Below are positions 5,393-53,741 of a stretch of 64,000 nucleotides of DNA, in pieces. This DNA is from a virus. Taxonomy: Duplodnaviria > Heunggongvirae > Uroviricota > Caudoviricetes. Numbering within the stretch: the stretch's first letter is position 1; each line of letters starts with the position of its first letter. The DNA lies in IMG/VR virus record IMGVR_UViG_3300042286_000208, positions 6,287-70,286 of that record; one strand, 5' to 3'. Under the pieces are notes generated by a model. It saw nothing but the letters and a program-made list of their open reading frames with translations, made no database searches and had not been told where the DNA came from. The position numbers and the translations under genes were made by a program.

Positions 5393-5960
5393 AAACTTTA
5401 CCCTGTGCTGTTTCCAGGGTTATCCCTCTTTGAACAGTGAGTGACGGCAGCATTTATCCGGACATATCTGTATAGTGTTAAGTCTTCCACTAAAGCAGGA
5501 ACTCTCTTTGTAAACAATTCTGTAAACTAAAACTTTAAAACATCGTAAACCATTTTGTAAACTAAAGGTGAAGATTTTTTGATAGCACTTTTACATAAGA
5601 ACTAGATATAATCTAATCAGATCTGGTTTTGTGTCGAACCCGCTAGTGTTAGTAGCTTCATCCTCTCTCCGAATTCGAGGACTTCTTAGGAGATCTTGTA
5701 TCACAAACGTGATACACTTACTTTCAAGGATTCTCACCCTGATCTACTATATGACTTTAATCTTCTTCATATAGCTAGTTACTTCAAAGAGCAATAACTA
5801 TATGTATTCTTTCCACTGTGAATGATTACCAATTTCAGTGAGTTATATCGGGAACTCATTAACGGGATTTCTTCGAGAAATGTCCAAAGGCTAGTTAGGT
5901 TTGATATAGTTAGCACTTTTGATTTCAAAGTCACAAATAAATCATAGTTTGCTCGACTAT
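5393..5960 (-). ncRNA. Candidate large structured non-coding RNA (~565 nt)
   Basis: No ORF; many stems (GTATCAC/GTGATAC, ATTTCT/AGAAAT, TGAGTT/AACTCA, CTATATGA/TCATATAG); late motif at 5' end; ACCCTG/CAGGGT hairpin plus T run at 3' end. Confidence 0.5.
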
Positions 5961-5973
5961 AATTAATTATTCA
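5958..5973 (-). promoter_or_regulatory. Putative late promoter motif TGAATAATTAATTATA
   Basis: Exact copy of 16-mer found 17 times in intergenic positions. Confidence 0.75.
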
Positions 5974-6153
5974 AGGGGTTCAAAACAAAAAAATAAACTC
6001 AAGTATAAATCCATTTGATCAAAATAAATATATTATAAAAATAGTTTAAATTAAAACAAGGTTATTAAAAGCTTTGTTTTTTTCTTAACACCAGAGGTAA
6101 TTAATTACTAGTTGGAAAGATTTTTTCCAACTTTTTTTTTACTTAAAACCTAC

Positions 6154-6169
6154 TGAATAATTAATTATA
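6154..6169 (+). promoter_or_regulatory. Putative late promoter motif
   Basis: Exact 16-mer, heads the trigger-factor operon. Confidence 0.75.
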
Positions 6170-6176
6170 AAACATA

Positions 6177-6260
6177 AGTCATCATATTGAACGAAGAGTC
6201 TACTCAGTTTCCTCCTCCTTGATTGGGTGGATTCTTCGTTGAGTATGATGATTATAGACT
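6177..6260 (+). promoter_or_regulatory. Long leader hairpin with anti-SD loop TCCTCCTCCTT
   Basis: 20-bp stem 6190-6209/6221-6240 (with G-U pairs), loop 6210-6220, lower stem TCATCATA/TATGATGA. Confidence 0.7.
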
Positions 6261-6281
6261 AAAAAGGAGGATAAATATCAA

Positions 6282-6485
6282 ATGACTCAAATCAAAATTA
6301 TTAAAAACATCGATATTAATAAAATGGAAAACGATGTCAACTGATGATTGAAACAAAACGACTCAAAGATCAAAGTAAAGAGTGTCGAGGTTAGCTCAGT
6401 TAACAGTCAGCCACCTGCAGTAAAAGGGTTATTCATAACAACGATTACTTATGAAGAAGCATCTACGGTGATTTTACATGATTAG
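6282..6485 (+). CDS. Hypothetical protein (67 aa, 2 TGA=Trp)
   Basis: AAGGAGG SD, ATG 6282, tandem TGATGA in frame, TAG stop; missing from ORF track. Confidence 0.65.
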
Positions 6486-10833: not shown

Positions 10834-10883
10834 CAACTGGGCTGGTCGAACACACCCCGGTCTAGTAGACCCTGGTCCACCAA

Positions 10884-10911
10884 CGACGGGGAATTTCCCC
10901 GTCATTTTTTT
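10884..10911 (+). terminator. Intrinsic terminator
   Basis: GACGGGG-AATTT-CCCCGTC followed by T7. Confidence 0.85.
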
Positions 10912-26669: not shown

Positions 26670-26690
26670 GGCGAACAACCATTAATGGCT
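26670..26690 (+). CDS. nrdJ: nrdJ micro-exon 2 (21 nt, GEQPLMA)
   Basis: Restores TNPC-GEQPL-MANGS-CNLGS catalytic loop with canonical spacing. Confidence 0.9.
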
Positions 26691-26951
26691 TAACCAAACA
26701 CTTAAAAAGTGTAGGCCCTTCATGTAGTAATATATGAAGAAAACCCTTTGAATTGCTGGAAAATCTTACCAAGTAATGTTGAAGACAATCAGCAGCCAAG
26801 CCTCAATAAGAGGAAGGTTCAACGACTATCTCGAAAGAGAGTAGGGTCAAGTGACTCGAAGCGGAGGGAATCCTATTAAGGATTATGATATAGTCTGTTC
26901 TATATGGAAACATATAGAGATAAGAATAACGAACTTATCGCAACAATAAAG
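26691..26951 (+). mobile_element. Group I intron 2 in nrdJ (261 nt, no ORF)
   Basis: P1 GGCT/GGCC with U.G; GAATTGCTGGAAA, AATCAGCAGCCAAG, GTTCAACGACTA and GATATAGTC; terminal G. Confidence 0.9.
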
Positions 26952-45155: not shown

Positions 45156-45205
45156 CTTAAAAGTGGGAATCAAAACAAATATTCGTTTTTTTGTTTGATG
45201 TCCAT

Positions 45206-45221
45206 TGAATAATTAATTATA
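45206..45221 (+). promoter_or_regulatory. Putative late promoter motif
   Basis: Exact 16-mer. Confidence 0.75.
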
Positions 45222-45261
45222 GAATGTTGATTCTTAAAAAGAAGGAAAGAGGTGACCTATT

Positions 45262-46575
45262 ATGATAATTAATGAGGGAAAACTATCAGAATTAAATGAA
45301 AAATATAAAGAATTAATAGAACAGAATCCAGAGTGGATAAAAGCAGCAGACAGAAGAAACAGACAACATATAATAGGCGTGCAGACTTTTGCCAAAAAAA
45401 TAGGTTATGCTTTTGAAGATCATGACGCTGATAAATTTGAATCACTATATGTTCCTTATGTTTTGATATCTATCGGTTATAATAGAGATTTTAATAAAGA
45501 TTTAACAATAGATGAAGAAATGGATAGCTTCATGAGATGGGCCACTTATAGTCATGTTACAAATAATTCACATCATCCTGAACATTGAGATTTGGAATCA
45601 GCAAGAATTAACAGTGCTATATCCTATAAAAACCGTGACGGAGCCAGAAATAGTATTATTGATGCTTCAAAAATGGATGAAAAATCAATTATAGAAATGT
45701 GCTGTGACTGGGCATCAGTGGGAGCTGAACGTGGAAATTCCCCGCAATCTTGGTTTGAGATAGGATTGAAGGATAAGTGGAAATTCACAGAAGAACAACA
45801 AGATCTTATCTGGAAAACTCTAGAAAAATTATGGCCAGGTGGTCGAAAAGAAACTGCAAAAGTAGAACATGAAGAAAGATACTTCAATGATAGAATATGG
45901 GAAATGTTAAATAAAGCATGGGATGAGTATAACAGCTCTAAAAAAAACAGTTTAGAAGAATCTTATAATTTTAGTGATTTTGAAAATGCTATAAATATAT
46001 TTTCTCAGGAAAAAGATAAGTTCTCTGATGTTATGGGGACCTTAAAGCAAAGAGGATATGAACCGGTGGTTACACTTCCAGGAGTAGGATCTCTTCAAGC
46101 TATATCTTTTCTCTTCTCTCCAGCAGTTACTAATTATGTTTTAAATCTTTTAGATTCAATTATAAACAAGAGTTACACGGTAACAGGCAGTGATAGCATA
46201 GTTAAATCAATGAATTTAGATAAAATTGAGCTAGGTGGTCAATACGGAACAAAATCTAAAATTTCAAGCAACTTTGCTAATGGAATCATGAGATCTCTAG
46301 AGAAAATAAATCAAAGTAAATTAAAAAATAAAGTTCTATTGGTCACTAAGTTTGTGAAAGATCTAAAAAGACATGCAAAAACAATAAGTGATAAAGTAGA
46401 AAAAGAAGAATATTTGGAAGATGTTAAAGCATTCATGAAGGTTATTGGTATTGTCAAAAACATAATCAACAATAGAAATCATTTTGCAAACGTTTTACAA
46501 AAAACACTTTTATTACAAGAAAGTGGAGAAGAAATAATAAGTGAATCGTTCCTAAATATATACGAGGGAATATAA
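45262..46575 (+). CDS. DUF5662/HD-like metal-binding protein with LxE motifs (437 aa, 1 TGA=Trp)
   Basis: HVTNNSHHPEH(TGA) and IIEMCCDW; two track ORFs join in frame. Confidence 0.65.
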
Positions 46576-46632
46576 TGAATATACTAGATAGGAACACCAT
46601 CTAGTTTATTATTTTAGAAAAGGAGAACACTG

Positions 46633-47589
46633 ATGGCTAAAACAATTAAAGAAATAAGAGATAGAGATCAATTCTTTACCAAAGAAGAAGTCAGTTTGAA
46701 CTGTATAGAAATAACCAATAGATATGTTAATTTAATAAAGCCTTCATTGGGATTCACTTTCTATGTGGAACCATCTGCGGGTAACGGAGATTTCTATAGA
46801 AACCTACCATCTGAGAGAACAATAGCCTTCGACATAGAGAAGCCAACACATGTTGATGATTTATATACAAGTTATGTAGAAACTGATTTTCTTGGCGTTG
46901 GACCTCTGATAGAAAACGGGATATACATAGGGAATCCGCCGTTTGGTAAACGAGGTAAAAAGGCTTTTGATTTTATTTTAAAATGTATTGATCTGGATGC
47001 AGCAATTATTGCTTTTATACTTCCTCCAAATATAAATACAAAGTTGAGATTAACCACCATAAGAGAAAAAGGATATGAAATTGTTCATATTGATGCTTTA
47101 AAACCAAATAGTTTTTATTTCTACAACGGAGAAGAAATATCCGATGTATCTGCAGAGTCAAATTTTCAAATATATATGAGAAAAGATCTAGTAGAAAAGA
47201 CTAACAACGATATAATAGTAGATGTAAATCTTAAAAATAATAATTTTGTTCAGGTATATACAATAAATGATAATGAAATTTTCAATACAGGCAGAGATAC
47301 AAAAGATAAAAAATTTGTTCAAAAAGGCATTGGTACGAAATGAATAGGGAAGTGCGACTTCTATATTCCCCTCAGAGTGTTTAACTCAGCCGGGAAGCCA
47401 ACATATAAAGATTCATTTATGGATAATTTTTTCTCTAACATAGGATTTGGGGTAATATGTCAGGATAAAGACATAAAAAATAAAATAAACATTGAAAACT
47501 GTTATACAGTTGGAATAAATAAAGTAAGAATAGCCAAAAAACAACTTATTTTAAAGGAAATAATGAGAGTTAAAGGGCTTGAAAGGTAG
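46633..47589 (+). CDS. DNA adenine methyltransferase (318 aa, 1 TGA=Trp)
   Basis: VEPSAGNG SAM motif I and IGNPPFG motif IV; read-through at 47341. Confidence 0.8.
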
Positions 47590-47598
47590 TGATTAAAA

Positions 47599-48795
47599 AT
47601 GAATAAATATAAGTGAAATAAATATGGGTTGCCAGCAATTGCGGCATTAGCAATACTGGCAGCTATATATATGATACAGCTAAACTTCGGTGACTATTTG
47701 GCACAAATATGAGATGCCTTTAAATCAGTAGCCATTCCGGCTGCTTTAGCGGTATTTATATCTTATCTAATACGACCTATGTATCGAAAAATGGTGGATA
47801 GGGGATTAAATAAATCTTTATCCGCACTATTATCAATGTTAGTGTTCATTCTGATATTTGGTGGCTTCATGACACTTGTTGTTGTGATGGTAACTATACA
47901 AATAAAAGAGCTAACACAGAGTGGATTATCAATAGTAAATGTAGATTTGAGCTGGGTATTTGGATTGATGCCAGAAGAAGTAGTTGTGGCAATAACAAAT
48001 ACATCAGGCCAACTGGATTTAATGAAGACATTTAATTATCTTGTCGAAACTGGAAAAATTAATCTATCAACAAATATATTTACAACCACAGTCAATAGTG
48101 TGGTGGGTATTATTTATTGGTTAATTGTTATTATTATGATGCCAGTATTTCTATTCTTCTTTTTAAAAGAAGGAGATACTATTGCAAAATCTATAATATC
48201 TTTCATACCAAAGAAATTTCACAGGGAAGACTTTGATGTAATGTTTCAGCTTGCGCATGTATCTACTGAAAAATATATGAGAGGAAAAATAATTTCAATA
48301 GGCTTTTTGGCCGGTTTCTTCTCAGTATCGTTTACTATTGCACTATTATTTTTTACACCAATAAGTATAATATCTGCGATTCTTTATGGATTACTATTTG
48401 GATCTATTATAGCTATACTCGATCTAGTGCCATATATTGGCCCGGGTATAGGTATAATCCTTCCATTATTATTTATTTTAATTTCATCAGCAAATTTCAC
48501 ACAGTTTCTAATATTTGGGCTAGTTTTCATCGCTATTGATATAATCGGTCAAAACTTGCAGAAAATGTTAATAGAGCCTATGGTCATGAGCAAGGAGATT
48601 GAAATACATCCATTAGCAATATTCTCTGGGCTGCTGTTTTTCGGAGCTCTATTTGGACTAGTCGGTTTAATAGTGGCTACACCTATTGTTGCGACACTTA
48701 GAAGTATATATAGATATCTAAATGGTAAATATAACGATGAGGCTATAGAGACAATAATAAATAAAGATTTAGATAAAGATGGAGAAATAGGTTAA
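47599..48795 (+). CDS. AI-2E family (PerM/TqsA-like) transporter (398 aa, 2 TGA=Trp)
   Basis: ISYLIRP, LVPYIGP, IHPLAI...GALFGLVGLIVATP; ATG 47599 in frame via TGAs. Confidence 0.85.
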
Positions 48796-48837
48796 AATAA
48801 CAATTTCTCAAAAATTTAAAGAAAAGGAGAATTAAAA

Positions 48838-49473
48838 ATGCCATATAATATTTTAAATAAAAAAGCATGGCTAGCTGAATTAGATAAACTTTCAGATACA
48901 TACATAGATTTTATAAATCAACTAACCAAAAGCAAAAATGAAACAGAGTTAGATATAAAATTATCTAAAAAGTATAAGTCTAATGACTTAGTGTTTACTG
49001 GGCAGGAGATACTTGATAATATTCAAAAGAAATTATCTGATGATATTAGTTATAAGTATGAGTTCAGAATTACAGATAATAAACCAACTGTTAAGAAAAT
49101 ATATAGAATTGCTTTCGATGATCAACAAAAACAAATAATCGGGAAAAGTAATCTCGAAAATGAAAATGCTATTGTTACCATAGAAGAGCTAAAATCAAAA
49201 CATATTGAAGCTATCATGAAAATAGCCGAATTATCTGAGATAATTGAAAAAAGAGAAGCCGACAATTTTGATATGTTTAAAGATATCATTGATGCACTAG
49301 GCGGACTTTACAATTACGCTTCTAAAAAGAAACTGATACTTATGCTTAGCAAAACATTAAAAGAAAATAATTTCTATGATAGTGAAAAAGGTACTCAATA
49401 CTCTTATGAAGGACTATCAAATAAAAATAAAGACAAGGTAATTATCGATTTATTTAAGAAAATCTATAAATAA
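48838..49473 (+). CDS. Hypothetical protein
   Basis: AAGGAG SD, 211 aa. Confidence 0.75.
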   Translation: MPYNILNKKAWLAELDKLSDTYIDFINQLTKSKNETELDIKLSKKYKSNDLVFTGQEILDNIQKKLSDDISYKYEFRITDNKPTVKKIYRIAFDDQQKQIIGKSNLENENAIVTIEELKSKHIEAIMKIAELSEIIEKREADNFDMFKDIIDALGGLYNYASKKKLILMLSKTLKENNFYDSEKGTQYSYEGLSNKNKDKVIIDLFKKIYK

Positions 49474-49493
49474 CAAATAACGGGAGGTTTTGA

Positions 49494-50930
49494 ATGAGAC
49501 TATACAAATACAATTCTTACTATGAGATAACAGATATACAGCAAAACTCCCCTTTATTTAACAAAATAGACTGGACGTTTAGTTGTTTTAACTTCAAGAC
49601 AAAGGAAAGATATGGTAGACTATATCTAAATATAGGTTCTACAGTCCGTATTCCAAGTAGTGTGTCTGAAGAATTTATGAAAGAAACATTTCAGTTATCT
49701 CCTATAAATAAAGAGATAGAAATGCCAGTGCAAGAAGATTTTTATACGATGAAAAACTTTCCTAGAGACGGCCTTCAAGAGAGAGCAATAGCATACCTAT
49801 GTGAAAGCGGAAATCATAAAGTTCTATCTTTAAACACAAATGCGGGCAAAACATATATATCTATAAACGCAATATCAAGATTAAAATCTAATGTTATTAT
49901 TCTAGTCGATACAATAGCTTTAGGAGAACAATGGCAGGAAGAATTTAAAAAACACACCAATATAAGTAATGTGCAATTAATAGACGCTACAGATATCGAG
50001 AACGATTTGGTCGAGGATGGAAATGCATTCATTATTACTGAGCAAAGTATAGGATCTCTCATGCTAAGAGACTATCATAAATTAGAAGAATTCATACGAG
50101 AAAAACAAATAGGAATTAAGATATTTGATGAAAGCCATACGCGCTTCCATGATTTAACAAGAATCAATAATATATTCAATACCGCTAGGACAATATACCT
50201 AACAGCGACATTCGATAGAACATATACGGAAGTCAAACAATGGAAAGAAATATTCAGTGGTGTAAAGAAAATGATTGAAAAAACTGAAGAACGCTATAGA
50301 GAGGTTCATTTAGTTAGATTTAAAACCGGATCAAGTGCATCTGAATATGAATTTAATCATGTTGTGGGTCTTAGAGGACCTTCATCAATTCTATGGGGAA
50401 AATATGTGATATCTAAAGAAGATAAACTTAGAAGACCTTTATTATCTCCGGTTATAGATAATATAATAGATTATTATAAAATTAAACCAAGAAATAACAA
50501 GACTATGTGTATTATAGTTCCCATGAATGAGATGATTGAGAGACTTAAAGATCACTTTGTAGAAAAAGGATATTCTGTCGGTGTATATACATCATCAGAG
50601 TCAAAGAAATACACAACCAAAGATATTTTTAATAATCAAATAGTTTTAACAAACAGCTCTATGTTTTCTAAGGGTATAGACATTCCAAATCTTAAATGGT
50701 TAGTTAATTTTACTTCTGTCAGCAGCTTGATATCACTTGAACAAGTTGTCGGTAGATTAAGAGGAAAAGAATCTGATAAAGAAAATGGTGTTTATATTGA
50801 TTGTGTTGATGTGTCTTTTGGAGATGCCTTTATCAAGCAACAAAAAACTAGAAAAAGATATTATAAGACAATAACAACAGATTTAGAATTATTAAAGGAA
50901 AAAAATGTAGTAAATCTATACGAAGAATAA
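49494..50930 (+). CDS. SF2 DNA helicase (UvsW-like)
   Basis: NTNAGKT, IFDESH, LTAT, SKGIDIP, QVVGRLR. Confidence 0.85.
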   Translation: MRLYKYNSYYEITDIQQNSPLFNKIDWTFSCFNFKTKERYGRLYLNIGSTVRIPSSVSEEFMKETFQLSPINKEIEMPVQEDFYTMKNFPRDGLQERAIAYLCESGNHKVLSLNTNAGKTYISINAISRLKSNVIILVDTIALGEQWQEEFKKHTNISNVQLIDATDIENDLVEDGNAFIITEQSIGSLMLRDYHKLEEFIREKQIGIKIFDESHTRFHDLTRINNIFNTARTIYLTATFDRTYTEVKQWKEIFSGVKKMIEKTEERYREVHLVRFKTGSSASEYEFNHVVGLRGPSSILWGKYVISKEDKLRRPLLSPVIDNIIDYYKIKPRNNKTMCIIVPMNEMIERLKDHFVEKGYSVGVYTSSESKKYTTKDIFNNQIVLTNSSMFSKGIDIPNLKWLVNFTSVSSLISLEQVVGRLRGKESDKENGVYIDCVDVSFGDAFIKQQKTRKRYYKTITTDLELLKEKNVVNLYEE

Positions 50931-50955
50931 TTAACAGAAAGGCGATGATTTATTA

Positions 50956-51240
50956 ATGCGTAATAATTTTAAACGCAAAAATAACGGTAATAAAAAAATA
51001 GAAGAAATTAAAGAGTTTGTAAGAAAAGAACAGTATACTATTCACGAACATTTCAAAAAAAGATTCGATGAAAGAGAGTTTACACACAGGGATGTCAGAA
51101 GAATTATATTTGATGGCAATCCGGTTTTTGATTTTCATAGTAGAGTGAGATTCGAATGGAAAAAACATTCTGTTGTTATAGAATTTAAAGACAAAGAGAA
51201 TGGAAAAGTTACCGACATAACCCTTGTAACTATATTTTAA
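50956..51240 (+). CDS. Hypothetical protein, DUF4258-like
   Basis: HEHFKKRFDERE...DVRRII..G pattern. Confidence 0.45.
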   Translation: MRNNFKRKNNGNKKIEEIKEFVRKEQYTIHEHFKKRFDEREFTHRDVRRIIFDGNPVFDFHSRVRFEWKKHSVVIEFKDKENGKVTDITLVTIF

Positions 51241-51253
51241 AAAGAGGTGTAAA

Positions 51254-51628
51254 ATGTATGAAAAATTCGCACTAGTAAGTGCATATAAATCTGATACAAC
51301 TAGAAATAGAAGAATTGAAGTATCTGATGATGACCATATGGTTGTCGTTGTGGCCATTAAAGTCGAATATAAATTAATCGAAGATAATTTTGATCACGTA
51401 CACTACAGCAGCGATAATGACAAAGTGGTTCTGAAAACTCTTTATAGAGATAAGGATAAAAAAATTTACTATAAAGGTGCTGGAAAGTATAGCAATTATA
51501 AAACAAAAGAAGCTAATAGTGATAAAACCTATTTGAATGAAGAACAAATGAAAGAATTAAGAGATTATTTGTCTCGATATTATCAACAAAAGTATCAAAA
51601 AATTATAGACAGAGATGCCATTATCTAA
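51254..51628 (+). CDS. Hypothetical protein
   Basis: GAGGTG SD, 124 aa. Confidence 0.75.
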   Translation: MYEKFALVSAYKSDTTRNRRIEVSDDDHMVVVVAIKVEYKLIEDNFDHVHYSSDNDKVVLKTLYRDKDKKIYYKGAGKYSNYKTKEANSDKTYLNEEQMKELRDYLSRYYQQKYQKIIDRDAII

Positions 51629-51641
51629 AGTTTAAAACAAT

Positions 51642-51653
51642 TATATATTATAA
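51642..51653 (+). promoter_or_regulatory. Putative early promoter motif
   Basis: TATATATTATAA. Confidence 0.45.
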
Positions 51654-51686
51654 TATTGTATAGGCTAAAGAAACGAGGAAAAAAGT

Positions 51687-51926
51687 ATGGCTCATATGAA
51701 AAGACTTCAAGGAAGAGAATGGCAAAATGTCAAAGAAAATGTTAGAACAATAGGTTATTTTGAAAACAAAAATAACGGACGCATAAAAATATTTACAAAA
51801 GTAAATGTTAAAGGTGGGATGATCATCTATCATTGACTAAACGATGCAGAAAAAGTTGAATTTGAGAAGATTAAACACGAATATCCTGTTATGGATGATA
51901 GAGCACGTATCGTAAAAGAAACTTAG
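51687..51926 (+). CDS. Hypothetical protein (79 aa, 1 TGA=Trp)
   Basis: GAGGA SD; open to TAG 51926 with one TGA. Confidence 0.6.
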
Positions 51927-51939
51927 GAGGATACTAGAA

Positions 51940-52389
51940 ATGAGAACAAGAGTATTAAATAGACTATTGATCATTGGTGGAATAGTTTTAATGATTTTAT
52001 TATCATTAATGTTGGGAATGTATGTTGATGTTGATGAATGGTATATCAAAGTTTTATTATACTTATCAATACCGATATTATTTGTGATTTGGTTCATCGG
52101 ACTTCAAATCATTGATATTGTTGTTTTGGGAATCATAAACCTTAAAGGTTTAGTTGATAAACAAGATGAGGAAAATAATTCATATATTAAACATTTATCA
52201 AATACAGATGATGATTTAGAATTTGTGTCTAAGCATAATGCTGCTAAATACACTCTTTTGGAAGAAAAAAGATTGAAAAATATTGAGGAACTTGAGCAAA
52301 ATATTACTTTGACTCAAAGCACAATCGATAAATTCACAAAACAATTATTTGAATTAGAGAGTCTAAAAAAACAATACGAAGAAAAATAA
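51940..52389 (+). CDS. Membrane protein (2 TM plus coiled coil)
   Basis: AGGAGG SD; hydrophobic N-half. Confidence 0.75.
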   Translation: MRTRVLNRLLIIGGIVLMILLSLMLGMYVDVDEWYIKVLLYLSIPILFVIWFIGLQIIDIVVLGIINLKGLVDKQDEENNSYIKHLSNTDDDLEFVSKHNAAKYTLLEEKRLKNIEELEQNITLTQSTIDKFTKQLFELESLKKQYEEK

Positions 52390-52404
52390 TCTCCTATTTT
52401 TGCA

Positions 52405-52510
52405 GTAATAAGAGATAGCAATTGAGCTATCTCTTATACTAGGAGGATCATGGAAAGGAGTAACCATGACAGCAAATGTTGATATAGTAGGAAAGGAGTA
52501 AACCTACTAT
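52405..52510 (-). ncRNA. Candidate small RNA with anti-SD loops
   Basis: Hairpins ATAGTAGG-TTTACTCCTTT-CCTACTAT and TCATGG-TTACTCCTTT-CCATGA, linker TCCTCCT, 12-bp terminal hairpin; late motif at 5' end and no minus-strand gene. Confidence 0.6.
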
Positions 52511-52523
52511 AATTAATTATTCA
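52508..52523 (-). promoter_or_regulatory. Putative late promoter motif, antisense to local genes
   Basis: Exact 16-mer on minus strand. Confidence 0.75.
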
Positions 52524-52554
52524 AAATTTATTTTATAAAAGGAGATGTTATTCA

Positions 52555-53493
52555 GTGGGTAAAAAGATTCCAATCACCCCAAATTTTAATATACTAATTG
52601 ATTCACAAAACTTACTGAGATTAGACGATGAATTAAAAAAAATAAACACATATGTCGAGGAAAAACCTTTGGGTGATAGAATGAAAGAATACGAATCACT
52701 TACTCGATTTAAACTATCCAAAGAATATCCGATGATCATACGTCTTGACGGTAACGCATTCCATACCTTTACAAGAGGATTTGAGAAACCATTTGATAAA
52801 ATACTGAGAGAAGCAATGGAAGAAACAGCAAAGTTTCTATTAGAAAACATCCCAGGATCTCAATGTGCTTATCATCAATCAGATGAAATATCAATATTAG
52901 TAACAAACTATCAACTTAGCAATAGAGAACCTTGGTTTGATAACAATATTAATAAAATTGTTTCCATAACTTCATCCATGGCAACTTTAGCCTTCAATAG
53001 ATCTTTTCTAAAGAAGATTAAGGAAAGAATCGGTATTGTTGATTACAACGAAGCAAGAATATATGCCGAAGACAGTTTTGTAGCAAAAATGGATGCGATC
53101 GAGAATGGAGCTCTATTTGACTCAAGAGTGTTTATTTTACCAAAAGACGAAGTGGTTAATTACTTCATTTGGAGACAACAGGACGCGATCAAAAATTCAA
53201 TCTCTATGGTGGCTCAATCACTATTTAGTCACAAATCACTTCAGGGCTTAAATGGTCCACAAATGATTAAAAGAATGAAAGATGAAAAAGGTATCGACTA
53301 TGATAAAAAATATACCGTCATCGAAAGAAGAGGCAGTATTACTCATAGATTAAAACCGATGGAACAGACCAAAGTTATAAGAATGAAAAACGGTATAGAA
53401 AAAGAAATAAGATTTACAAGATCTAATTGGGGTATAGATGATAATATTCCAGTGTTTAAGGACGAAAGAGACTATATCGAAAAATTTATTTAA
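52555..53493 (+). CDS. thg1: tRNA(His) guanylyltransferase / Thg1-like 3'-5' polymerase
   Basis: RLDGNAFHTFT, QSDEIS, FDSRV, YFIWRQQDAIKNSISM. Confidence 0.92.
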   Translation: MGKKIPITPNFNILIDSQNLLRLDDELKKINTYVEEKPLGDRMKEYESLTRFKLSKEYPMIIRLDGNAFHTFTRGFEKPFDKILREAMEETAKFLLENIPGSQCAYHQSDEISILVTNYQLSNREPWFDNNINKIVSITSSMATLAFNRSFLKKIKERIGIVDYNEARIYAEDSFVAKMDAIENGALFDSRVFILPKDEVVNYFIWRQQDAIKNSISMVAQSLFSHKSLQGLNGPQMIKRMKDEKGIDYDKKYTVIERRGSITHRLKPMEQTKVIRMKNGIEKEIRFTRSNWGIDDNIPVFKDERDYIEKFI

Positions 53494-53520
53494 AAGATTT
53501 TAAAAGATTATATTAAAAAT

Positions 53521-53660
53521 CTCTTGATTAATTCAAGAAATGTTATGAAATATAACATTTAAAATAGGGCGAAGATATGCGGCGTCCTTGAATCGAGGAC
53601 GCCCAGCTCCGATGTTATAATAATGTGCCGCGCCGGTCGCGATCATTATTATAACATTAA
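53521..53660. repeat. Cluster of four inverted repeats with GC-rich cores
   Basis: TCTTGA/TCAAGA, AAATGTTAT/ATAACATTT, GGCGTCCT/AGGACGCC, ATGTTATAATAATG/CATTATTATAACAT. Confidence 0.8.
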
Positions 53661-53741
53661 ATAATTATTTACAATAATTATCATTTTAATATAAATATTA
53701 TAATTTTTACGAATCACCTAATAAAATAAAAACAATAGTTT

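Follow-up and report, generated by a model that had tools for sequence, protein, structure and literature searches.

Between two genes of an uncultured jumbo phage of ~258 kb lies what is very probably a real minus-strand RNA gene. The predicted transcript folds into three hairpins and exposes three tracts that resemble the anti-Shine-Dalgarno (anti-SD) end of 16S rRNA. Judged by its reading frames, the element is non-coding, and even when the alignments are read cautiously it represents a phage RNA family that is new, well conserved and clear in both strand and structure; the covariance model R1 was built for it. The most likely function is that the RNA masks AAAGGAG-type ribosome-binding sites by base pairing, to which we would give about an even chance or slightly less.

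All coordinates refer to the window, i.e. the whole stretch of 64,000 nt that was analysed. The RNA module is located at 52404-52524 on the minus strand, where it fills part of the 165-nt gap separating two plus-strand genes. The gene at 51940-52389 encodes a protein of 149 aa with no assigned function, for which a homologue search revealed no relatives outside this phage; it does not overlap the RNA gene. On the other side, at 52555-53493, a Thg1-like tRNA(His) guanylyltransferase (PF04446) is encoded, the SD of which (52540-52544) is positioned outside the predicted RNA.

The window sits in a virus contig of 134,286 bp with 31% G+C. A second contig of 124,311 bp was recognised through the abundance of the same 17-mer promoter that precedes the RNA. 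Its end shares 127 identical bases with the end of the 134,286-bp contig, so that both represent one genome of ~258.5 kb. Four additional contigs derive from this phage and, being 100% identical, carry no information on conservation. The phage helicase is 26-30% identical to the helicases of AR9, PBS1 and staphylococcal jumbo phages (26-27% for AR9 and PBS1), and the phage appears to be of a type distantly related to AR9. Reading TGA as sense increases the coding density from 74% to 89% by a crude estimate, and 93 genes then contain in-frame TGA; in the late genes of the phage TGA appears to be a sense codon.

A perfect late motif aimed leftwards had been noticed in the sequence-only reading of the locus. 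This motif, TTGAATAATTAATTATA, is indeed present as a perfect 17/17 copy at 52508-52524 on the minus strand, and it is identical in all 10 relatives in which it is present. Throughout the joined 258-kb genome 43 perfect copies are found, together with eight copies with one mismatch and three with two; little change is tolerated in the motif. Most copies are followed by a same-strand SD and a start codon 17-45 nt downstream, and often they lie directly 3' of a terminator consisting of a hairpin and a T-run. The first genes behind the copies include those for the tail sheath (phrog_19666), virion proteins (phrog_3004, 2926 and 3013) and a head-tail joining protein (PF24214). Because it heads such structural genes, we regard the motif as a late-type promoter, and the label 'late' was justified. 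The same genes rule out that it is an early promoter of the AR9 virion polymerase type, although the early promoters of AR9 are similarly long and AT-rich. When upstream regions were searched for an early promoter by k-mers, with words of at least two G/C, only SD words and tRNA T-loops came up; as the words were limited in this way, an AT-rich early promoter would escape the search.

The 12-nt core of the motif is palindromic, and direction is given by the flanking TTGA and A, with TTGA being one-sided in every copy. Nine divergent gene pairs contain two separate motif copies each, which indicates that a single copy fires in one direction. Bidirectional use of the palindromic core to serve the Thg1 gene was ruled out on these grounds. 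Of the perfect copies, that at 52508-52524 alone is opposed to the surrounding plus-strand genes without an ORF behind it. In the shortest leaders only 3-4 nt separate the motif from the SD, so transcripts start inside or just past the last bases of the motif; by analogy with these other copies, the 5' end of the RNA would be located at ~52510. The 5' arm of its first hairpin begins at the last bases of the motif, and another late unit without an ORF, at 5393-5974, shows the same for its first hairpin.

The predicted architecture, two hairpins with near-identical loops, a UCCUCCU linker and a 12-bp terminal hairpin, was found in full on the minus strand. Hairpin A (52484-52510), with which the RNA begins, consists of an 8-bp stem, AUAGUAGG/CCUACUAU, and an 11-nt loop, UUUACUCCUUU. 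It is followed by a variable single-stranded spacer (52470-52483), in which relatives show substitutions and indels of 1-5 nt, and by hairpin B (52448-52469, or 52447-52470 with the closing G·U), whose stem (G)UCAUGG/CCAUGA(U) of 6 bp plus one G·U closes a 10-nt loop, UUACUCCUUU. The UCCUCCU linker (52441-52447) is single-stranded, is unpaired in the consensus fold and lies inside the invariant segment AUCCUCCUA; it represents the third anti-SD-like motif besides the CUCCUUU sequences of the two loops, which like the linker are unpaired in both the single-sequence and the consensus folds. Hairpin C (52408-52437, in a segment reaching to 52404) comprises 12 bp and a 2-bp extension, reaching 15 bp in most relatives, and probably serves as 3' end or stabiliser. 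It is followed by a short, interrupted AU-rich tail, UUAUUAU, and not by the U7-9 run typical of the ordinary terminators of this phage. The 3' end is hence a predicted one, and the RNA may be longer or need processing.

Fold z-scores are -7.2 for the minus and -5.7 for the plus strand, and none of 200 shuffled sequences folds as well. In the 134-kb contig the 10-mer AAAGGAGTAA is restricted to these two loops. Where it is found in the other half of the genome, it is an ordinary SD. A search with covariance model R1 detected no paralogues in the phage genome; there is one copy per genome.

Relatives were reached via Thg1 homologues of 62-86% identity and by one pattern scan of metagenomes. Seven distinct metagenomic contigs of related phages carry the complete module (L147, L148 (=L149), L150, L151, L152, L164 (=L165) and L166), and two further versions, L145 and L168, are truncated by contig ends; from the related contigs L146 and L167 the module is missing. 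The gene upstream of the module differs among the relatives, and in L147, L164 and L166 an extra gene is inserted between the module and Thg1. These differing flanking genes indicate that the module travels on its own.

Alignment A2 contains the eight complete versions, including that of the window's phage. Shape, loops and linker are conserved among them. Promoter, stem B, the core CUCCUUU of loop A and the linker within AUCCUCCUA are invariant in all eight versions. Stem A is unchanged in seven of eight, L148 lacking a base, and loop B likewise keeps its CUCCUUU core in seven, L148 reading UCUUCUUU with CUCC lost; altogether, the core is preserved in 15 of the 16 loops. What varies is the 5' half of either loop, the spacer that separates hairpins A and B, hairpin C's own loop and all sequence outside the module. 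Of the covariation that had been suggested as a check, hairpin C shows one compensatory change; stems A and B show virtually no variation and therefore lend no covariation support. The constancy of these two stems at the sequence level is not accounted for by a masking function.

The degree of conservation bears on whether the element is functional at all. It might be a relic in which the promoter was orphaned when its gene was deleted or inverted, and which happens to lie beside ordinary hairpins; the lack of an ORF and of a canonical terminator would fit this, as would another embedded reverse copy of the motif, with two mismatches, at G001:70248-70264. Over the eight lineages, however, the RNA is more conserved than the adjoining coding DNA, with a mean pairwise identity of 83% compared to 67% for Thg1. 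Moreover, ~75 of its ~105 positions are invariant in the alignment of the eight versions, and the substitutions keep the structure on one strand only. We strongly disfavour a non-functional relic, which we consider extremely improbable.

The functional strand was assessed from the same alignment. On the minus strand the non-Watson-Crick cells amount to 10 G·U and three mismatches, all three in the stem extension of the window's own version, whereas the plus strand gives one G·U and 12 mismatches; this test rests on about seven independent substitutions, all in hairpin C, and the shuffle control of the pair counts was not significant (56/500). Hairpin C of L147 carries one compensatory change from A-U to G-C, and its G·U wobbles in L148, L164, L150 and L152 become A·C mismatches on the plus strand. 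The closing G·U of hairpin B is possible on the minus strand only, in seven of eight versions. The consensus fold comprises 30 pairs for the minus strand (-34.1 kcal/mol) and 25 for the plus strand (-27.7 kcal/mol). The case for the minus strand being the functional one is good but not overwhelming, and it agrees with the direction of the promoter.

Neither strand appears to encode a protein at this position. The sole minus-strand ORF (34 aa, 52363-52467) lacks an SD, and in the relatives its frame is interrupted by indels in the loops. It was rejected as a gene, which upholds the view that there is no minus-strand gene here. On the plus strand, the ORF starting from ATGACA has 3, 5, 6, 6, 11, 11 or 21 codons in seven versions and the ATGAAC variant of L150 has 15, and a second ORF is equally unconserved in frame and length. 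The indels in the spacer between hairpins A and B shift or truncate these mini-ORFs. The alternative that the locus encodes plus-strand mini-ORFs is refuted by these changes of frame and length.

A functional plus strand could take other forms. In an mRNA, the SD-like AAAGGAG loops might act as a ribosome stand-by site or decoy, as a CsrA-type GGA sponge or as a coupling device, with UCUCCU (52390-52395) bound to the SD of Thg1 (52540-52545). The plus strand folds well too, its minimum-energy fold being closed by a UCUCCU/AGGAGA helix, and all neighbouring genes are on this strand. GGA in hairpin loops is the motif recognised by CsrA. However, the substitutions in hairpin C and at the base of hairpin B create A·C mismatches on the plus strand, the UCUCCU segment is unconserved and the downstream gene differs among relatives. 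Neither half of the phage genome encodes CsrA (PF02599), which together with the strand test also disfavours the GGA-loop protein sponge that had been offered as an alternative. As the perfectly conserved leftward promoter would in addition be left unexplained, we regard a plus-strand function as very improbable.

The RNA could not be assigned to a described family. Rfam gave no match at gathering scores or at E values up to 10, and a tRNA search of the locus was likewise without result. No homologues were found in IMG/VR or in the 'phages' collection, where only four chance-level matches to Streptococcus satellite phages appeared (E 0.4), and an 18-mer query of the genome contig collection gave 11 matches, approximately the number expected by chance.

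The 3' part of loop A, CUCCUUU plus the closing C, forms the 8-mer CUCCUUUC, which is present also in the 3' tail of Bacillota 16S rRNA; CUCCUUUC and CCUCCU are literal pieces of this tail. In L150 both loops read CCUCCUUU, which is even closer to it. Carrying the sequence of the 16S 3' tail, the tracts are complementary to AAAGGAG and AGGAGG ribosome-binding sites. On this basis we propose the following mechanism. The RNA of ~105 nt, reaching from ~52510 to ~52404, would be read from a structural-gene promoter and would thus be made late and in quantity, while the 5' hairpin and the long 3' hairpin may shield both ends against exonucleases. The three unpaired tracts, CUCCUUU twice in loops of 10-11 nt and UCCUCCU in the linker, would copy the 16S rRNA 3' tail and, by pairing with such sites, keep 30S subunits off the message. 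Probable targets would be the phage's own non-late messages, whose commonest SD word is AAAAGGAGA, and probably host messages; a further target could be a perfectly complementary plus-strand read-through transcript of the intergenic region. Late leaders, mostly GAGGUGA with a much better pairing to 16S rRNA, would be less affected. We infer transcription, 3' end, targets and translational effect of the RNA from its sequence and setting. Two considerations stand against masking: 7-9 bp in a loop would have to outcompete abundant ribosomes, and the antisense strand of any region with SD-like words shows anti-SD words.

To what extent late genes could escape such an RNA was evaluated from their SD sequences. 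Among the 43 late-promoter-proximal genes, the GGTG register (GAGGUGA) was found in 32 and the AAGGAG register in 7. TGA-containing genes deeper in operons divide into 21 and 26, and TGA-free non-proximal genes into 30 and 87, respectively. When TGA-containing and promoter-proximal genes are pooled as late-like, the ratio of 53/33 against 30/87 corresponds to a Fisher odds ratio of 4.7 (p 3e-7). For late-proximal sites, predicted duplexes with the 16S tail are more stable (-13.7 against -10.4 kcal/mol, p 7e-11) and those with the loops of the RNA slightly less stable (-6.4 against -7.1 kcal/mol, p 0.02). In silico, a loop duplex of -7 kcal/mol or better is formed by 59% of the TGA-free, 46% of the TGA-containing and 28% of the late-proximal genes. 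The proposed escape of the late genes would be a statistical one and only partial, since AAGGAG-type sites still occur in 30 of the 93 TGA-containing genes and the UCCUCCU linker does not discriminate, pairing about equally well across all gene classes. The bias in the late-gene SD register is hence real but partial, and selectivity is weak.

The phage also has a bS21 gene of its own, which stands second in a late unit. This ribosomal protein contacts the helix formed by SD and anti-SD, and it has been suggested to promote late phage messages (PMC9723584). The bS21 gene, the register shift and the apparent sense reading of TGA in late genes are in keeping with the masking function. The bS21 gene and the register shift fit a late reprogramming of initiation, while the part of the RNA in it is not proven thereby. 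In a broader version, which we think is unlikely, a free late copy of the ribosome's anti-SD tail would soak up AAAGGAG-register sites of host and early phage messages and, together with bS21 and the GAGGUGA leaders, form a switch that hands ribosomes to the late messages in which TGA is read as tryptophan. More speculative still, masking the internal SD of the prfB frameshift site could lower RF2 and thereby help TGA recoding.

The literal match to the 16S tail would also suit a protein decoy, in which the three tail copies titrate a factor that recognises the tail, without any pairing to mRNA. Such a factor could be bS21 from host or phage, IF3, an RNase of the maturation or toxin kind, or a sensor belonging to host defence. 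The constancy of stems A and B at the sequence level would suit recognition by a protein, and with its late bS21 the phage possesses a protein that contacts the 16S-tail region (PMC9723584). However, neither helix 45 nor the arrangement of elements at the 3' end of 16S rRNA is mirrored in the RNA, and no gene for an RNA-binding protein is linked to the locus in any relative. We know of no precedent for an RNA that acts as a protein decoy of the 16S tail, and we hold this explanation to be quite improbable.

A different explanation accepts a real and late RNA but confines it to regulation in cis. Its sole target would be the complementary plus-strand polycistronic read-through transcript, and the anti-SD appearance would be a by-product. 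Loop-loop kissing would be followed by duplex extension and RNase III cleavage, by which the helicase, Thg1 and topoisomerase genes would be uncoupled or shut down late. Three stem-loops antisense to a message are the classic design of the RNA I/RNA II and CopA/CopT pairs, and ColE1 RNA I, R1 CopA and lambda OOP are antisense RNAs of ~100 nt with stem-loops and loop-loop recognition. Read-through is likely here, as the plus strand contains no terminator-like site or forward late promoter at 45205-53741, and the single copy per genome would agree with a local target. In AR9, seven late promoters drive ORF-less antisense RNAs within oppositely oriented gene blocks, using the phage's own polymerase (PMC5312081).

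Several observations nevertheless argue against a purely cis-acting antisense RNA. Complementarity needs no fixed sequence, yet loop cores and linker are constant while the other unpaired parts drift. The conserved RNA (~52404-52510) is contained entirely in the interval from the stop codon (52389) to the SD (52540) and hence overlaps no ORF, start codon or SD; this is the same in the relatives, and overlap with a gene would arise only if transcription passes hairpin C. The variation of the neighbouring genes among relatives further argues against gene-specific control. RNA I, CopA and OOP overlap a functional segment of their target, i.e. a primer, a leader or a gene end, whereas the phage RNA overlaps an intergenic spacer only and, unlike them, has loops that are conserved in sequence. 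Also the AR9 antisense RNAs overlap genes, while the RNA described here is intergenic, and the available part of the AR9 report describes no conserved structure or anti-SD motif for them; the AR9 late promoter is given there as the short AACA-(6N)-TA/G, in contrast to the strict 17-mer found here (PMC5312081). Taken together, exclusive cis-antisense control is rather unlikely in our judgement.

For pairing in trans, as proposed by the masking mechanism, small RNAs of Gram-positive hosts offer the nearest comparison. SprX, an sRNA of staphylococcal converting phages, pairs with translation initiation signals through a CU-rich loop (PMC4005690). With SprX (RsaOR), RNAIII and RsaE/RoxS the phage RNA shares the small structured form, its own promoter and unpaired pyrimidine loop motifs complementary to the SD. 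It is, however, unrelated to them in sequence and by Rfam, and therefore an analogue and not a member of this class. While those RNAs are read from a host promoter and expose UCCC or C-runs, the phage RNA is placed behind the late promoter of a virulent jumbo phage and contains three literal copies of the 16S tail, which implies very broad rather than gene-specific targeting. The RNA has no described family, and its closest documented analogues are SprX and the AR9 late antisense RNAs. In our literature searches we found no phage late RNA built of repeated anti-SD motifs.

A sorting of messages by their SD is known from T4, where the endoribonuclease RegB inactivates early messages via the SD (GGAG) and later genes escape by other forms of the SD. 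The logic is the same as that of the proposed masking, but RegB is a protein nuclease that acts early, whereas here a late RNA would act by masking, and the analogy is a functional one only. Phage bS21, like the proposed RNA, is a late factor at the SD/anti-SD step, but it is a ribosomal protein, and a functional link between the two is speculation.

Proteins such as RegB, phage bS21 and ribosome-binding proteins are known means by which phages take over translation. Small RNAs that mask ribosome-binding sites are already known from bacteria and prophages. If the masking mechanism is true, a virulent jumbo phage that produces a stable RNA with the 16S tail in triplicate from its own late promoter would represent a novel mode of sorting messages by their SD register. 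The locus offers a concrete handle on the separation of early and late translation, in a lineage in which TGA apparently is a sense codon in late genes, bS21 is encoded in a late unit and the SD register of the late genes is shifted.

Judged by their sequences, the 134,286-bp contig that holds the window (G000) and a second contig of 124,311 bp (G001) are a single jumbo-phage genome of ~258.5 kb. The IMG/VR completeness rating is about half for each of them, and their ends share 127 identical bases in opposite orientation (G000:134160-134286 and G001:124185-124311). The 17-nt late promoter is common to both contigs and is found throughout the joined genome.

Among the units headed by this promoter, the minus-strand stretch at window 5393-5974 is a candidate large non-coding RNA on sequence grounds. 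A perfect leftward promoter at 5958-5974 is followed by ~560 nt without an ORF, which have a higher G+C content than their flanks and end in an ACCCTG/CAGGGT hairpin with a T-run. The first hairpin (ATAGT/ACTAT) begins inside the last bases of the promoter, a feature shared with the ~105-nt predicted small RNA at window ~52404-52510. No Rfam family matched the unit at gathering scores. Besides the copy that heads this small RNA, a second promoter copy that opposes its surrounding genes lies in the other contig (G001:70190-70264, corresponding to L137:10190-10264); it is weakened by two mismatches, CTGG standing in place of the flanking TTGA. It is followed by UGUCCUCCUG and then by a hairpin with a U-rich tail, and, if active, this copy would produce a putative RNA of ~45 nt with one anti-SD-like motif.

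On the plus strand, a promoter with one mismatch heads a leader and a 20-codon ORF (window 6153-6345, ORF at 6283). The leader contains the stretch UUUCCUCCUCCUU, which is able to pair with the SD sequence of this ORF, AAAAGGAGGA, and may thus be a cis-acting leader that sequesters the SD. Directly after the Thg1-like gene and ahead of the next late promoter (53741), the G+C-rich intergenic stretch at window 53540-53650 is strongly self-complementary and may be a further structured RNA, with no meaningful match to it in Rfam. The plus strand of the window also carries members of two known RNA families: RF00028, a group I intron at 26682-26917 (101 bits), and RF02975, a DUF3800-XI RNA at 10838-10900 (55 bits).

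Reading TGA as a sense codon raised the coding density of the joined genome from 74% to 89% with a simple ORF caller, and under this reading 93 genes contain a total of 241 in-frame TGA codons. In L146, a related contig without the small-RNA module, the Thg1 gene is translatable only if TGA encodes tryptophan. The 64-kb window contains no tRNA genes, but the other genome half, G001, has them at locus L133 (G001:103500-104800) as well as at further positions. Directly upstream of L133:640 lies a tRNA-like sequence, and T-loop words occur nine times in the genome.

Across the joined genome, the first gene after a late promoter mostly uses the SD register GAGGUGA, which pairs with AUCACCUC in 16S rRNA, while the remaining genes mostly use AAAAGGAGA. 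The phage also encodes a 76-aa homologue of ribosomal protein bS21 (G000:115736-115966, corresponding to L172:5736-5966, plus strand; PF01165, 35.4 bits, above the cut-off), whose gene is the second downstream of the late promoter at G000:114763.
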